Of a DNA stretch of 64,000 bases, positions 3,467-64,000 are shown in pieces. Position 1 is the stretch's first letter. The number at the start of each line of letters is the position of its first letter. Below the pieces are notes generated by a model that did no database searches, was not told where the DNA came from, and saw nothing but the letters and a program-made list of their open reading frames with translations. The position numbers and the translations under genes were made by a program. The stretch is from a virus (Duplodnaviria; Caudoviricetes), in the IMG/VR virus record IMGVR_UViG_3300031555_003626, positions 128,001 to 192,000 of that record. One strand, 5' to 3'.

Positions 3467-3832
3467 ATGTCAAAGCTTAAGATTAAAACTCATACTACTT
3501 ATACTTATGAAACTACTGACGGCAGAGAATTCGAAGACCAGTCTGAGGCTCAGGAGTGGCAGGACCATTTAGAAAATATTACTGGCACCGTAATGCTTGA
3601 TCATAATTTTTGTAATACTACCAGAGTAGACGAAGCTATGTATGTACATGTTAAAACTGAGGCTCAGCTCAAAGCTTTTGAAGCTATCAATTCTTATGAA
3701 GGCATGTGTGCGAAGATTGATGCTCTCGGCTACTGGTACTATGATGAGCGCACAGATAATTATGTAAGCGTAAATAAGGAAATGTATAGGCTTCAGAGCA
3801 TTATTGAAACTCTTGATGTTCTTGGAAAGTGA
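3467..3832 (+). CDS. Hypothetical protein
   Basis: GAGGTG RBS; Y.T.DG..F motif shared with 26489 and 56293 ORFs. Confidence 0.75.
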   Translation: MSKLKIKTHTTYTYETTDGREFEDQSEAQEWQDHLENITGTVMLDHNFCNTTRVDEAMYVHVKTEAQLKAFEAINSYEGMCAKIDALGYWYYDERTDNYVSVNKEMYRLQSIIETLDVLGK

Positions 3833-3839
3833 GGATACG

Positions 3840-4994
3840 ATGTTTAATACTGAACTTGGCTTGTTTTGCTATATGCACGATAACTGGGAAGAGCTTTTGA
3901 CTCAAGAGCCTTATTATCTTAAGATAAAGGAAGACGGCCCTTATGTAATTTTTAACTATGACCAGCTCAGATCAGATTTTTCTAATCATATTGTTCAGGA
4001 AGCTAGAGGCATTATCTTTAAAAGAGATGATTGGACTCATCCTGTTTGTTGGCCGTTTATGAAGTTTTTTAATGCAGGAGAGCCAAACGCAGCAGAGATT
4101 GATTGGTCTACCGCTTTCGTATCTGAGAAGGTCGACGGCTCTCTAATTAAGGTATGGTGGGATGGTTCTTGGAAGATCTCTACTAATGGAACTATTGATG
4201 CTTATAAGGCAGAGATTGGTGACGCTAGAATGCCTGACTTCGGAACTTACTTTACTGAAACTATTCATACATACTATACTACCTGCAGTAGTTTTCTTTG
4301 TGAGCTTGACTCGGACCTTACCTATATGTTTGAGTTGGTAGGCCCTTATAACAGAGTAGTTATTCCTTACGAAGAGCCTGATATCTATTTCCTTGGAGCT
4401 CGTAATAAGTATACCGGAGAAGAGCTTAACTGTTCTCCTTTGGCTGCTGGTGCTCTTGGTATGGGAAGATTTAAGTTGCCTAAGCAGTACCCTTTTAATA
4501 CTTTGGAGCATTGTATTAAGGTTACTGAGAATTTCCCTTGGGACGCAGAAGGCGTTGTAGCCTGTGATGCTAATTTTAACCGTGTTAAGATAAAGTCGCC
4601 TGCTTATGTTATGGCGCACTTCGCCCGGAATAATAATGTGATCAATAGAAAGCATCTTATCAACGTAATCCTTACTAATGAGGTAGAAGAGTTTCTTTGT
4701 TATGCCGCCGACTACAAGGAAGAGCTCGAGAAGGTACAGAATCTTATGAAGGCTTACTATAAGGTAGGCGATCAGATTGCTAAGTCCTGTCAGCGACTCT
4801 ATGATATTCCTAAAAAGACTTATGCTTACTGGGTACAGACTCTTCCTAAGATTTATCAGGACCTTGCTTTCAGAAATTATAATAACATTATGTCTACTAA
4901 GGATTATACCGCCGGCTGGAATGAGAATAAGTGGGACCAGTATCTTGATGAGTTTGAAAAGCTTAAGGAGGTTTTGTTTGATGGCAAAAATTGA
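3840..4994 (+). CDS. RNA ligase, T4 Rnl1 (RnlA)-like
   Basis: EARGIIF, KFFN, motif I EKVDGSLI, FEL, EGVV, KIKS. Confidence 0.85.
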   Translation: MFNTELGLFCYMHDNWEELLTQEPYYLKIKEDGPYVIFNYDQLRSDFSNHIVQEARGIIFKRDDWTHPVCWPFMKFFNAGEPNAAEIDWSTAFVSEKVDGSLIKVWWDGSWKISTNGTIDAYKAEIGDARMPDFGTYFTETIHTYYTTCSSFLCELDSDLTYMFELVGPYNRVVIPYEEPDIYFLGARNKYTGEELNCSPLAAGALGMGRFKLPKQYPFNTLEHCIKVTENFPWDAEGVVACDANFNRVKIKSPAYVMAHFARNNNVINRKHLINVILTNEVEEFLCYAADYKEELEKVQNLMKAYYKVGDQIAKSCQRLYDIPKKTYAYWVQTLPKIYQDLAFRNYNNIMSTKDYTAGWNENKWDQYLDEFEKLKEVLFDGKN

Positions 4995-15411: not shown

Positions 15412-16041
15412 ATGATTGAATACAATAAGATTGATACTCTTTACAAGAGAGATATGGAAGGAACTAAGAAGCTTCTCGAGGGTGAGTTTAGAAATCCTAC
15501 AGTAGAGTTTCTTAAGGATAATATTTGGACTTTTACCGAGAAGATTGACGGAACCAATATATCCGTTTGTTGGGATGGACATACTATTACATTTAACGGC
15601 AGAACAGAAAGAGCTGAGATTCCTACACATCTTCTTAACTACCTTATGGCTACTTTTAAGACAAATGAGGCTGAACAGATTTTTGAGGAGAAGTTTGGTG
15701 AGACGCCGGTAATTCTTTTTGGTGAGGGCTATGGTCCTAAGATTCAGAACGGTGGAAACTACAGAGCTGACGTAAGCTTTATTATGTTTGACGTTCTTAT
15801 TGCAGGCAACTACCAGCCTAGAGAATCCGTAGAAGATATCGCAAAGGCATTTGGTATTGATATCGTGCCTATTATCTTCGAGGGAACTATTCAGGAAGGC
15901 GTAAACTTTGTAAAGGGTCATCCTGATTCTACTATGGGTACCGCAAAAATGGAGGGTCTCGTTGGTCGTCCTAAGATAGAGATGCGCGACCGTTGTGGTA
16001 AGCGAGTTATTGTTAAGATTAAGTGGGAAGACTTTAAGTAA
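15412..16041 (+). CDS. RNA ligase, Rnl2-like adenylation domain
   Basis: TEKIDGTN, FGEGYG..IQ, FDV, VP, EGLV, KIK. Confidence 0.8.
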   Translation: MIEYNKIDTLYKRDMEGTKKLLEGEFRNPTVEFLKDNIWTFTEKIDGTNISVCWDGHTITFNGRTERAEIPTHLLNYLMATFKTNEAEQIFEEKFGETPVILFGEGYGPKIQNGGNYRADVSFIMFDVLIAGNYQPRESVEDIAKAFGIDIVPIIFEGTIQEGVNFVKGHPDSTMGTAKMEGLVGRPKIEMRDRCGKRVIVKIKWEDFK

Positions 16042-57785: not shown

Positions 57786-58712
57786 ATGGCTAAGTTGATT
57801 ATTTTATGTGGGCTTCCTGGAAGTGGAAAGAGCTATTATGCTGCCCAGCTATGGCGAAGAGAAAACACCTTTGATGAGCCTACTGCAGTAGTACACTCTT
57901 CAGATGCTATAAGAAAAGAACTTTTCGGCGATGCAGGCTCGCAGGAAAATAATGCTCTTGTATTTGAGACTATGCATAAGAGAGTAAAGGACGACCTTAG
58001 AGCAGGTAAGACTGTAATTTATGATGCAACTAATATTACTCGAAAGTCTCGTCGTGGAATAATCAATATGACTACTAAAGACGATATTGTTGAGTGCCAT
58101 ATTGTTTGGGCGCCTGTTGATACTTGTATTAAGCGAGATGCCAAGCGCGAGCGCCACGTAGGTAGAGAAGTAATTGATAAGATGATTCGTCGTTGGCAGA
58201 GCCCACATAAGTCTGAAGGTTTTACTTGTATCGATGTTATCTGCTCAGACCCTAACTTTGATCAGACTAAGTACGTAGCAATGCAGGCTGACCAAATGCA
58301 TATACCCCATGACAACCCCCATCACACTCTTGGTGTTTGGGATCATTGTATGCAGGCTTATTACTATCTTTGCCAGCAGCCTAATATCAATGATGACCTG
58401 AAGACTGCTACAATGTGGCATGATATCGGAAAGCCTTATACTAAATCGTGGCATATCGATAAAGTAAACGGAGCAGTAGATTATTCACACGCTCATTATT
58501 ATGATCATCATTGTGTTGGCGGCTATCTTGCTTACGGACTTTTCTTACATAAGGATTTTGATGAGGAAGATGTAGACTTTATGTGTTGGGTGAGCTGGCT
58601 TATCTGCAATCACATGGAGCCTTTCTTTAACTCTCATTGGTATAGAGAACTTCCTGAGCACTTGAAGCAGCCTATTGATATATTGCATGCCGCTGACGTT
58701 TCTGCACATTAA
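57786..58712 (+). CDS. Polynucleotide kinase (AAA_33) fused to HD phosphohydrolase (Pnk-HD)
   Basis: GLPGSGKS, SSD.IR, YDATN..R..R, then HH...H...HDIGK...H...HM...AD. Confidence 0.85.
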   Translation: MAKLIILCGLPGSGKSYYAAQLWRRENTFDEPTAVVHSSDAIRKELFGDAGSQENNALVFETMHKRVKDDLRAGKTVIYDATNITRKSRRGIINMTTKDDIVECHIVWAPVDTCIKRDAKRERHVGREVIDKMIRRWQSPHKSEGFTCIDVICSDPNFDQTKYVAMQADQMHIPHDNPHHTLGVWDHCMQAYYYLCQQPNINDDLKTATMWHDIGKPYTKSWHIDKVNGAVDYSHAHYYDHHCVGGYLAYGLFLHKDFDEEDVDFMCWVSWLICNHMEPFFNSHWYRELPEHLKQPIDILHAADVSAH

Positions 58713-61044: not shown

Positions 61045-61157
61045 AGAGCCAATGCTTATTTCTTTGCCTGTTAAGCCGTGTGTCGCAGGTTCGAATCCTG
61101 CCATCCCGCTGCAGTGGGATGTAGCTCAGTGGTAGAGCAACGATTATTAGCTTGGCC
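61045..61157 (+). ncRNA. Circularly permuted tRNA-Asn(GTT)-derived, YrlA-like RNA
   Basis: Conserved stem, then gc-ctgttaa-gccgt, T arm gcagg-ttcgaat-cctgc, closed acceptor catcccg/tgggatg, D arm tagctcagtggtagagc, acg, then stem 3' strand. Confidence 0.8.
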
Positions 61158-61210: not shown

Positions 61211-61328
61211 AGAGCCAATACTTATTTCTTTAATGCTGGGGACTGCGATCGTAGGTTCGACTCCTGCCCCGCCGACCAATCGGTGGGTAGCCAAGCGGTA
61301 AGGCAGCGGTTAAATTAATAGTTTGGCC
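61211..61328 (+). ncRNA. Circularly permuted tRNA-Pro-derived, YrlA-like RNA
   Basis: tgggg-actgc, T arm gtagg-ttcgact-cctgc, acceptor cccgccg-ACCA-at-cggtggg (C1-G72, A73), D arm, gcggt. Confidence 0.8.
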
Positions 61329-61337
61329 AAAAAGTTT

Positions 61338-61451
61338 AGAACCAATGCTTATTTCTTATGATTTTCCAGCTGGCCGTGCGGGTTCGATTCCCGTCGCTCG
61401 CAGAGCGGGTGTAGCTCAATGGTAGAGTTCCAGCTTTCATTTAGCTTGGTC
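61338..61451 (+). ncRNA. Circularly permuted tRNA-Gly(TCC)-derived, YrlA-like RNA
   Basis: ttcca-gctgg, T arm gcggg-ttcgatt-cccgt, acceptor cgctcgc-aga-gcgggtg, D arm, ccagc. Confidence 0.8.
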
Positions 61452-61467
61452 ATATTTTGTTTAATAT

Positions 61468-61577
61468 GGGCTGATTAGCTTAGTGGTAAACCTTGGGTAG
61501 TTTCACATACCAAGTTAAGAGGCAGAGCCCCTCCCTTCAAAGGAGGAGACTCCGGTTCGACTCCGGAATCTGGCCCA
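61468..61577 (+). tRNA. tRNA with UCA anticodon (UGA-reading) and D-loop insertion
   Basis: cctcc-cttcaaa-ggagg anticodon arm, T arm tccgg-ttcgact-ccgga, bulged 8-bp acceptor; about 35-nt hairpin in the D loop. Confidence 0.6.
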
Positions 61578-61585
61578 CTTAATAT

Positions 61586-61740
61586 GCTCCTGTGGCGGAA
61601 TAGGCAGACGCTGTGGACTTGTTTGAGTAGTTTAATGTAAAACAAGTCCGCAAGACTGATGTGAGTTCAAGTCTCATTTCAAGCACCAAAAATCCACTGC
61701 CCGTAAGGGCGTACCGGTTCGAGTCCGGTCAGGAGCACCA
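61586..61740 (+). tRNA. tRNA-Leu(TAA) interrupted in the anticodon by a nested tRNA-like element (61621-61688)
   Basis: Removing the insert gives an 87-nt class II tRNA with gtgga-cttaaaa-tccac and ACCA end. Confidence 0.85.
61621..61688 (+). other. Nested tRNA-like insert 1 (68 nt, ends ACCA)
   Basis: gtttgag/ttcaagc acceptor, gttt/aaac D stem, agtc-cgcaa-gact, gtgag-ttcaagt-ctcat. Confidence 0.8.
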
Positions 61741-61744
61741 TAAA

Positions 61745-62248
61745 TCTGAGAACTCCTATATGATGAAATGATATACTCTATAGCAAGCTCAGCGTTAGCC
61801 CACCTCGAGTGCGTTAATCTCGAGTATTTATCGTGAGGGGCATGAATGATTTCTGTACATATATTGTGAATTTCGAATACTTGGTAGAGCAAGAAGGACG
61901 ATAACTACTTCTTTGGATCGTACAGCATTAATGATTTACTGAGTATCTCGACGTTAGGACTGATAAATAATTTAATAACCTTGAGGCGATTGCTACCTTG
62001 AAAGATAGGAGCAGACTTGAAAGAGCACTCGCGGACCAAAAGAAGTTAATTGTCGAGAAAACCGCGGACTTCGGTCTCATAATCGACGGATTGTGGGATT
62101 TAGTGACTAGGATGAGGTGTGGCTACGCAGACCAACTTATATAAATGACGGACGGGTAAATAGATCTGAAAAGTGAAATAACCGAGAAGTTTATATGCAT
62201 AGTGTCTAGGCGTAGAGTAGAGGCGATGTAAATTATTTATCAGACACC
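61745..62248 (+). ncRNA. Candidate large pseudoknotted ncRNA (~500 nt) inside tRNA cluster
   Basis: No credible ORF; perfect 15-bp pair 61960-61974/62229-62243 crossing pair 61899-61916/62036-62055. Confidence 0.55.
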
Positions 62249-62267
62249 AATGTTTTTTAATTTTTAT

Positions 62268-62342: not shown

Positions 62343-62365
62343 AAAATCAATTTAATTAATAATAT

Positions 62366-62465
62366 GGGCATGTAAACTAAAATGGTAGAGTGGGATAATT
62401 GCCCGTGAGGTTCGATTCCTCCTTGGTCTTTGGTAGATATGCCGGTTCAAGTCCGGTCGTGCACT
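62366..62465 (+). pseudogene. Degenerate tRNA-like sequence with two T arms
   Basis: gggcatg/cgtgcac ends, D-arm-like start, gagg-ttcgatt-cctc and gccgg-ttcaagt-ccggt; no anticodon arm or CCA. Confidence 0.4.
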
Positions 62466-62472
62466 TTAATAC

Positions 62473-62810: not shown

Positions 62811-62947
62811 TGAGCTATGGTGTAAAGGTAGCACAACAGACTTTCGTGGATTAGCATAAGTAATGCACTACATGGTTATAATAGTTCAAGTCTATTATTC
62901 ACGGCCAGACTCTGTTGGTTTTGGTTCGAATCCAGATAGCTCAGCCA
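62811..62947 (+). tRNA. tRNA-Gln(TTG) interrupted by a nested tRNA-like element (62845-62907)
   Basis: Removing the insert gives a 74-nt tRNA with acaga-ctttgac-tctgt, T1-A72, GCCA end. Confidence 0.85.
62845..62907 (+). other. Nested tRNA-like insert 2 (63 nt, ends GCCA)
   Basis: cgtggat/attcacg acceptor, gcat/atgc D stem, aatag-ttcaagt-ctatt T arm, vestigial anticodon arm. Confidence 0.8.
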
Positions 62948-63111
62948 GATCCGGAGTATGACTATCCTTCAACAGAAAACCGACCACGATAATCTCTTAA
63001 AGCGCTTTAGGAGGTCGAGTAAAACAAAGAAGGAACTTTTATTAAATTATTAATTTATCAAAAAAAATATTCGCTAAATTATTTAGAAATCAATTAAAGG
63101 AGATTATTGCC

Positions 63112-63446: not shown

Positions 63447-63645
63447 GCTTCCGTAGCTCAGCTGGTAGAGCAACAGACTTTGATTGAATCGTTTAAATGG
63501 GTTATTAGATTAGTGAATGGTATAAACCTAATTTAATAAGTTCTGTTCGTAGGACATCGGCCTGATAGCCGAAGATGTGAGTTCAAGTCTCGTTTCAGTC
63601 ACCATAATCTGTGGGTCGCGGGTTCGATTCCCGCCGGAGGCACCA
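63447..63645 (+). tRNA. tRNA-Lys(TTT) interrupted by a nested tRNA-like element (63482-63604)
   Basis: Removing the insert gives a 76-nt tRNA with acaga-cttttaa-tctgt and ACCA end. Confidence 0.85.
63482..63604 (+). other. Nested tRNA-like insert 3 (123 nt, Ile-like, own D-loop hairpin, ends ACCA)
   Basis: gattgaa/ttcagtc acceptor, tcggc-ctgata-gccga (6-nt loop), gtgag-ttcaagt-ctcgt. Confidence 0.8.
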
Positions 63646-63665: not shown

Positions 63666-63851
63666 ATGAAAGTAAGATATACTTGTAAACATTGTAATGA
63701 GACAAACGAAATCACAAATTTTTGGAAGTGGTTTTGGACCCCGCATTTTGGAACCAGAAAGCGCCTTCATTGTAAGGCTTGTAACAAGGTTAGCTATATG
63801 AAACGTCAGGATGGTCGAAAGATCCTTGACTGGTATACAGAAAAGAAATAA
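63666..63851 (+). CDS. Small Zn-ribbon protein
   Basis: AGGAG RBS; CKHC...PH....L.CKAC. Confidence 0.7.
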   Translation: MKVRYTCKHCNETNEITNFWKWFWTPHFGTRKRLHCKACNKVSYMKRQDGRKILDWYTEKK

Positions 63852-63860
63852 TTTAATATG

Positions 63861-64000
63861 GGGTAGGTAGTGAAGTGGCCAAACACGCGGACTGTAACTC
63901 CGTGCTTCATTGTATTGAGCTTATCCGAAGGAACTCGCGACTCTGTAAGATATGATTCAATCAAGTTTAGGCGCGCATGTGACTTGTGAAGCTTCGCTGG
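63861..64000 (+). tRNA. tRNA-Tyr(GTA) with ~90-nt expanded variable arm, truncated by window end
   Basis: gtgaagtggccaaacac D arm, gcgga-ctgtaac-tccgt, gcttca...tgaagc stem, then ttc gctgg (start of T arm). Confidence 0.65.

Follow-up and report, generated by a model that had tools for sequence, protein, structure and literature searches.

The window analysed here is a stretch of 64,000 nucleotides that corresponds to bases 128001-192000 of a 233,329-bp phage record in IMG/VR (G000; 37% G+C). A tRNA array runs from about position 61,500 of the window to beyond its end. Within this array a tRNA-Gln(UUG) gene is interrupted by a 63-nt, tRNA-shaped insert. The features needed for the argument are, in window coordinates:

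3804-4994, plus strand: T4 Rnl1-like RNA ligase, candidate sealing enzyme (PF09511, 49 bits; phrog_562, E 2.6e-56)
15412-16041, plus strand: Rnl2-family RNA ligase domain protein (PF09414, 64.8 bits; phrog_548)
57786-58712, plus strand: polynucleotide kinase (AAA_33; PF13671, E 2.2e-25; phrog_505) with a weak C-terminal HD match (18 bits, below cut-off)
61621-61688, plus strand: sister insert of 68 nt, CCA-ended, in tRNA-Leu(UAA) after nt 34
62811-62844, plus strand: 5' exon of tRNA-Gln(UUG), nt 1-35, 3' end C32 U33 U34 U35 (Rfam tRNA match; in-silico splice)
62845-62907, plus strand: tRNA-shaped, armless intron of 63 nt (Rfam tRNA score; homologues in L178, L191, L170 and L045 with compensatory stem changes)
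62908-62947, plus strand: 3' exon of tRNA-Gln(UUG), nt 36-76, CCA encoded (Rfam tRNA match; in-silico splice)
62948-62995, plus strand: downstream flank agatccggagtatgactatccttcaacagaaaaccgaccacgataat, the 48 nt after tRNA-Gln, near-identical in G000, L178 and L191 (alignment)
63482-63604, plus strand: sister insert of 123 nt, CCA-ended, in tRNA-Lys(UUU) after nt 35; the orthologous tRNA-Lys in L178 lacks it

The Rfam tRNA model matches 62811-62944 with 50.3 bits and a 66-nt insertion. The insert lies after nt 35 and splits the anticodon between U35 and G36. Exact removal of 62845-62907 leaves a 74-nt tRNA that ARAGORN calls as Gln(ttg), with the loop CUUUGAC, a U1-A72 pair and G73, textbook features of bacterial tRNA-Gln. 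In its intron mode ARAGORN sets the boundaries off by one base and calls Glu(UUC); Gln is preferred over Glu in view of the acceptor-to-CCA boundaries and of the identity elements. The interrupted gene is the only tRNA-Gln in the 233-kb genome, which uses 593 CAA and 802 CAG codons for Gln; this codon usage is uninformative. In its default mode ARAGORN reports only a tRNA-Trp and a tRNA-Ile in the window and none of the three interrupted tRNAs (0/3), all of which are found by the Rfam tRNA model as tRNAs with large anticodon-loop insertions. Since standard tRNA finders miss such genes, the tRNA repertoires of phages are undercounted.

Several other stretches of the array and its surroundings were observed. 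The 48-nt flank at 62948-62995 may function as an RNA, or may mark a recombination boundary at which tRNA cassettes are exchanged. Between tRNA-Trp and tRNA-Ile, a tRNA-like stretch (62343-62470) carries the T-arm motifs gaggttcgattcctc and gccggttcaagtccggt and a terminal helix gggcatg/cgtgcac of 6/7 bp without CCA; a part of it is called as a weak tRNA-Thr by ARAGORN at relaxed settings only. A gene resembling tRNA-Tyr(GUA), its anticodon arm intact, extends from 63861 to the window end at 64000 and on to genome position 192023; it contains an insert of about 84 nt in the long variable arm, which is not tRNA-shaped, and L178 has this gene at 94.6% identity. The genome also holds a normal tRNA-Tyr, at positions 193678-193763. 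Directly downstream of a 668-aa protein without Pfam match, sub-threshold Rfam matches to YrlA (Y RNA-like) are found at 61077-61143, 61249-61304 and 61356-61458, with the order of T arm and D arm permuted. The roughly 520 nt between tRNA-Leu and tRNA-Trp (61740-62260) hold no convincing ORF and no Rfam match and may be a structured RNA. Finally, a 61-aa zinc-ribbon ORF (63666-63851) lies between tRNA-Lys and tRNA-Tyr and is missing in the otherwise syntenic L178.

The 63-nt insert has the following parts, all on the plus strand:

62845-62851 and 62897-62903: acceptor stem cgtggat/attcacg, 7/7 bp with one G.U
62852-62853: U8-A9
62854-62866: D arm gcat-aagta-atgc, 4-bp stem
62867-62879: linker a-ctacatggttat, 13 nt, which replaces the anticodon arm and cannot form a hairpin
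62880-62896: canonical T arm aatag-ttcaagt-ctatt, 5/5 pairs and a 7-nt loop
62904: G73
62905-62907: CCA (tail GCCA)

The sequence-only reading from which this work started had described a nested element of exactly these 63 nt that kept its acceptor, D arm, T arm and CCA and lost its anticodon arm, and each part was found where it had been placed. When the 63 nt alone were scored with the tRNA covariance model RF00005, 35.7 bits were obtained (E 8.7e-7, model positions 1-71; the gathering score is 29 bits). In that alignment the anticodon arm is drawn as a "stem" of 3 bp closed by a 2-nt loop, a physically impossible shape; the 13-nt linker stands where about 22 nt are expected and leaves no arm to present an anticodon. 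Because the anticodon arm is absent the element is unable to decode, as had also been claimed. On these features the 63-nt element is a tRNA-derived, non-decoding intron. The fold of lowest energy, at -12.5 kcal/mol, is not the cloverleaf, which has -9.5 kcal/mol (z about -1.5). This thermodynamic support is weak, so the case for the intron rests on the covariance-model score and on the comparative data. An alanine-type minihelix was considered and rejected, G3.U70 not being present in the acceptor stem of the intron.

Relatives of the locus were sought in several ways. No match was obtained by blastn of the locus against GenBank phages or by a protein-based search with the neighbouring kinase as query. 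A first scan with an anticodon-stem pattern gave four chance matches in coding DNA and one real one, in L003. The T-arm pattern AGTTCAAGTCT..T........CCA gave no further inserts with that T arm; the tRNA-rich loci retrieved by the AGTTCAAGTCT pattern did hold other inserts. A pattern restricted to the D arm and T loop (TAGCATAAGTAATGC...GTTCAANTC), which omitted the acceptor and the T-stem positions 49-52/62-65, was then scanned against viral and metagenome contigs and gave 22 distinct sequences. The closest relatives are these:

L178: 61-nt insert in tRNA-Gln after nt 35; acceptor stem as in G000, discriminator A, linker ACAAATGAGAT
L191: 63-nt insert in tRNA-Gln after nt 34; acceptor CACGGAT/ATTCGTG, T stem ATAAG/CTTAT
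L170 and L181: 55-nt insert in tRNA-Gln after nt 35; D and T arms shared with G000, acceptor wholly different and perfectly paired, 1-nt tail without CCA
L045: 58-nt armless insert in tRNA-Lys

L178 is 81% identical to G000 over 1.17 kb. Compared with these two, L191 shows compensatory, two-sided changes at pairs 2-71 and 3-70 of the acceptor and at pairs 50-64 and 51-63 of the T stem. Among the 14 nested members, 93% of the acceptor and T-stem cells are paired, versus 55 +/- 5% after the 3' strands were shuffled between sequences, and this value was matched in 0/2000 shuffles. All 15 nt of the D arm are shared by inserts with completely diverged stems, a conservation that is partly built in, as the D arm was the search criterion. 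The linkers of L178, L191, L170 and L045 are 8-13 nt long and conserved in neither sequence nor length; free-standing tRNAs with the same D arm have linkers of 21-24 nt and thus a complete anticodon arm. Since these short, unconserved linkers occur together with the shared D arm, the armless state, by this comparison, is an old and stable condition of the D-arm subfamily rather than the decay of a single genome's copy.

The outer gene was compared in the same way. In G000, L178 and L191 the intron is well conserved and the 48-nt flank near-identical, yet the tRNA-Gln exons differ at most positions. After exact deletion of the insert, each exon pair of G000, L178, L191 and L170 gives a perfect tRNA-Gln(UUG) cloverleaf with a 7-nt loop, G73 and a weak 1-72 pair. 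Because diverged exons still fold perfectly in four lineages, the outer tRNA-Gln gene is, on this comparative evidence, under selection to function.

To judge whether such inserts are more than chance, 159 phage loci collected on other grounds and G000 were scanned without bias (3.36 Mb, both strands counted). The scan was for inserts of 40-200 nt with a closing helix of 7/7 bp and any 4-nt tail, and it required that, once the exact insert was deleted, ARAGORN call a tRNA joined within the anticodon loop. It gave 16 inserts, every one of them placed after nt 34, 35 or 36. Two end in CAA and 14 in CCA, and as only about 0.25 CCA endings are expected by chance, chance is excluded. All 12 of the short inserts that were aligned have a 5-bp T stem and a 7-nt loop flush against the 3' strand of the acceptor, although the T arm was no selection criterion; in this alignment the T stem is 100% paired, four of its five pairs covary with changes on both sides, and G53-C61 is invariant. 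A relaxed screen of phage tRNA arrays raised the collection to 33-34 distinct inserts. The conserved bases are U8 (31/33), A14 (31/33), G53 (32/33), C56 (33/33), A58 (29/33) and C61 (32/33), and the base that precedes the insert (nt -1) is U in 29/33. The stretch from nt 9 to the T stem is shorter than the 39 nt of a tRNA in almost all short forms and is 26 nt in the G000 intron. The interrupted tRNAs are nearly all U34 tRNAs (Lys, Gln, Leu-UAA, Ile-UAU, Thr-UGU, Gly-UCC and Pro-UGG), split inside the anticodon.

In a count that allowed tails of 0-6 nt, 23 inserts have a tail of 4 nt (NCCA, or NCAA in L072) and 10 a tail of 1 nt; tails of 0, 2, 3 or 6 nt do not occur, and the single 5-nt case is doubtful. 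These two lengths match the two natural 3' ends of tRNA. In arrays whose ordinary tRNA genes include CCA the inserts are NCCA-tailed (for example G000, 13/13; L045, 18/19; L156, 27/29; L072, 12/12; L074, 12/13; L178, 8/8), the CCA-less Asn lineage has N-tailed inserts, and L170 and L184 mix both tail types. It is suggested that the tail type tracks the CCA coding of the array, as a trend and not a rule, among few independent lineages. In the 213-kb phage L072, two inserts (L072:3023-3084 and L072:9635-9701) end in ACAA instead of NCCA, and 12/12 ordinary tRNA genes of the locus encode CCA. L161, L165, L182, L188 and their relatives carry a 54-nt armless insert in tRNA-Asn(GUU), with a G1-A72 mismatch in every variant, covariation at pairs 3-70, 4-69 and 5-68, and a single T as tail; their arrays encode no CCA. 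L035:677-900 was set aside as a probably rearranged or decayed locus and not a family member: a tRNA-Gln 5' half is followed by a larger, complete tRNA-like block without CCA, and the 3' exon is partly missing.

The G000 intron has all the marks of this family. It lies inside the anticodon (after nt 34-36 in the family), its deletion restores a 7-nt loop and a recognisable tRNA, its first base is the +1 of its own acceptor, its 7-bp acceptor is stacked on a 5-bp T stem, and its tail is N73-CCA. It is thus a member of a widespread, barely described class of phage tRNA introns. As judged from the covariation and the conserved bases, selection in this class keeps only the "top half" of a tRNA and its 3' end: the 12-bp acceptor/T stack, U8, A14, G53, C56, C61 and a tRNA-type tail.

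The inserts are probably mobile. Of two near-identical phage contigs, L003 and L030, only one has a 71-nt, CCA-ended insert in its tRNA-Gln, and the tRNA-Ile insert that both share differs by two double compensatory changes in the acceptor. The tRNA-Lys of L178 is uninterrupted and its G000 counterpart has the 123-nt insert, and inserts with the same D arm occupy Gln, Lys, Leu and Asn tRNAs. Such presence/absence alleles and a common D arm in several tRNAs point to a mobile element.

How might the intron be removed? Its boundaries are the +1 of its own acceptor and its own A76, so its two splice sites are natural tRNA processing sites. Our preferred reading, to which we give slightly better than even chances, is that the shape of this tRNA-derived, non-decoding and probably mobile intron is its excision signal, that RNase P and an RNase Z-type enzyme make the cuts, and that a phage Rnl1 or Rnl2 ligase seals the exons. 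Host RNase P would cut at 62844/62845 and leave a 3'-OH on the 5' exon; an RNase Z-type endonuclease would cut after A76, at 62907/62908 (or after N73 in the CCA-less relatives), and leave a 5'-phosphate on the 3' exon. The exons would be held together by the acceptor, D and anticodon stems of the outer tRNA, and an Rnl1-like or Rnl2-like ATP-dependent ligase of the phage would seal the nick in the anticodon loop with no need for end healing. An acceptor-T minihelix with a 3' NCCA can serve as a substrate for bacterial RNase P, for which U is the preferred base at -1; cuts by RNase P and by RNase Z both produce 3'-OH and 5'-P ends, and T4 Rnl1 seals nicks in tRNA anticodon loops. With such ends, and with the exons held by the outer stems, the two cuts would present a ligatable anticodon-loop nick, a substrate of the T4 Rnl1 type.

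The conserved parts of the inserts (the 12-bp acceptor/T stack, the elbow, the single-stranded NCCA and the U at -1) are the parts read by RNase P and RNase Z. The anticodon arm should be dispensable for all enzymes of the proposed route, which would explain its loss. A precise cut after A76 is made by the tRNase Z of T. maritima (PMC1540738). With methanomicrobial RNase Zs the substrate decides whether the cut falls after N73 or after CCA, and these enzymes accept pre-tRNAs without D, T or anticodon arm, provided that the 5' end is matured (PMC7479834). What counts against the proposed 3' cut is that CCA inhibits RNase Z in many bacteria, for instance B. subtilis (PMC7479834). In the phage genome no RNase P RNA, no metallo-beta-lactamase/RNase Z and no CCA-adding enzyme was found, and both cuts would therefore depend on the host. 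The suggestion, made beforehand, that the element is a purely structural excision signal can be kept in part: the selection on the acceptor/T stack, the elbow nucleotides and the tRNA-type 3' end agrees with such a signal, whereas "purely" exceeds the data, given the 15-nt D arm shared across diverged stems and the apparent mobility of the inserts. Besides acting as an excision signal, the excised RNA may have roles of its own, or the interruption a regulatory or protective one.

The ligases were followed through the collection. A match to PF09511 or PF09414 at E<=1e-3 is present in 10/10 insert-bearing records and lies over the family cut-off in 8/10; no RtcB was found in G000 or in any of the 10 records. 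ATP-dependent ligases over cut-off do not discriminate, being present in 8/10 insert-bearing records versus 16/31 large control records from comparable phages without known inserts; the difference in Rnl1 (5/10 versus 4/31) is suggestive.

A serious rival to RNase P and RNase Z cutting, if an unlikely one in our judgement, is that a phage or host endonuclease recognises the tRNA-shaped insert and cuts both junctions to leave a 2',3'-cyclic phosphate and a 5'-OH, which the kinase-HD protein would heal and Rnl1 seal, as in the T4 repair of anticodon-nuclease damage. In its favour, the genome encodes an Rnl1-like ligase and, 4 kb upstream of tRNA-Gln, the polynucleotide kinase with its weak HD-phosphoesterase match, and the Lak introns (see below) carry extra 5' sequence that RNase P alone could not remove. 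A kinase/ligase pair is expected anyway, since large phages commonly encode one to counter anticodon nucleases. No candidate endonuclease was found; the archaeal splicing endonuclease family (PF01974) is absent from the phage. The junctions form a 4x7 internal loop and not a bulge-helix-bulge, and the restriction of tails to 1 or 4 nt is more simply explained by enzymes of the tRNA 3' end.

Another possibility is that the interruption is itself the function: U34 tRNAs would be kept inactive, or hidden from host anticodon nucleases, until the phage ligase is made, or the excised, CCA-ended mini-tRNA would be a working RNA (decoy or regulator). We think this quite improbable as the main explanation. 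It would fit the near-restriction to U34 tRNAs split inside the anticodon, but phage-encoded tRNAs are mostly U34 anyway; it would also fit the invariant D arm amid diverged stems, but there the search pattern itself contributes to the conservation. That the insert was kept while the surrounding exons were replaced also speaks for it, and the existence of close relatives without particular inserts, as expected of dispensable mobile elements, speaks against it.

That no splicing occurs, the gene being a disrupted pseudogene or RNase P just freeing two halves and a mini-tRNA, is very improbable: a splicing route of the kind proposed here is not known to have been demonstrated in bacteria or phages, but four lineages with very different exons all give a perfect tRNA-Gln after exact deletion (7-nt loop, UUG, G73, weak 1-72), on which ground the pseudogene was rejected, the gene is the only tRNA-Gln of the genome, and the design recurs in at least 33 distinct inserts. 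Known intron types were rejected as well. A group I intron needs a core of about 200 nt or more, Intron_gpI was not matched and tRNA is the only Rfam match; at 63 nt and without a P1-P9 core, self-splicing is impossible. A bulge-helix-bulge intron disagrees with junctions that form a 4-nt/7-nt internal loop between two helices, and with the lack of PF01974 in the phage.

Inserts too small to self-splice, in tRNA genes that are kept functional, mean that bacteria infected by phages must have some splicing route not yet recognised. What this route reads is narrowed down by the armless 63-nt member and the relatives of 47-61 nt: the acceptor/T stack, the elbow nucleotides and the tRNA-type 3' end, and not the anticodon arm. 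Stated in its general form, the RNase P/RNase Z reading would make this a third kind of tRNA splicing, found in large phages and free of a dedicated endonuclease, in which a mini-tRNA within the anticodon recruits RNase P (at +1) and RNase Z (at N73 or A76), the acceptor/T/D "top half" suffices, and Rnl1 or Rnl2 seals directly. We put this wider claim somewhat short of even. If true, it would give phage Rnl1/Rnl2 ligases a natural role beyond repair, and the dependence of U34 tRNA maturation on a phage ligase could serve to time or protect the phage tRNAs.

The closest known systems are the "enigmatic" introns in the tRNAs of Lak megaphages, of which one "may encode a tRNA" (Devoto et al. 2019, PMC6784885, Fig. 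4, Table S6). As in G000, a tRNA-like fold is inserted in the anticodon loop of a phage tRNA, is too small to self-splice and shows presence/absence alleles among close relatives. The Lak introns follow nt 36/37 and consist of a small 5' hairpin, an A-rich spacer and then a CCA-less tRNA-like part (Table S6, PMC6784885), whereas the G000 intron is flush with both junctions, splits the anticodon at 35|36, ends in GCCA and is armless, and so differs from the Lak layout. With the 5' hairpin and spacer in between, RNase P alone cannot define the Lak 5' splice site. A 2026 survey of jumbo phages repeats the "may encode a tRNA" remark and adds no mechanism (PMC13037316), and our full-text literature searches found no study on the removal of such phage tRNA introns.

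In its structure the G000 element resembles the minimal model substrates of RNase P and RNase Z, namely the acceptor-T minihelix with 3' NCCA and arm-deleted pre-tRNAs (PMC7479834), with which it shares the 12-bp coaxial acceptor/T stack, a canonical T loop, a single-stranded NCCA, U at -1 and a dispensable anticodon arm. It differs in that it is a natural, putative substrate that lies inside another tRNA and keeps a D arm with U8/A14, so that a full elbow is possible.

With the group I introns in the anticodon loops of bacterial, plastid and phage tRNAs, the element shares its location inside the anticodon and its mobile-looking, presence/absence alleles; it differs in its 63 nt and the lack of a P1-P9 core. 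An example is the tRNA-Leu(UAA) intron between nt 34 and 35, and to our knowledge every tRNA intron so far described from bacteria and phages is a self-splicing one of group I. Protein-dependent tRNA splicing is usually assigned to Archaea and Eukarya, and we know of no splicing endonuclease in bacteria. As with the archaeal and eukaryal bulge-helix-bulge introns, splicing in G000 would depend on proteins and the exons would be held by the tRNA body, but the bulge-helix-bulge motif is absent, the site is 35|36 and not 37|38, and the expected ends are 3'-OH/5'-P and not cyclic phosphate/5'-OH. The proposed sealing step has its nearest counterpart in the anticodon-loop repair by T4 PNK and Rnl1: a nick in a U34 tRNA would be sealed by an Rnl1-type ligase, and G000 encodes both a ligase and a kinase. 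In contrast to that repair, the break in G000 would be programmed by the gene's own structure and not made by a host nuclease, and no healing would be needed before sealing.
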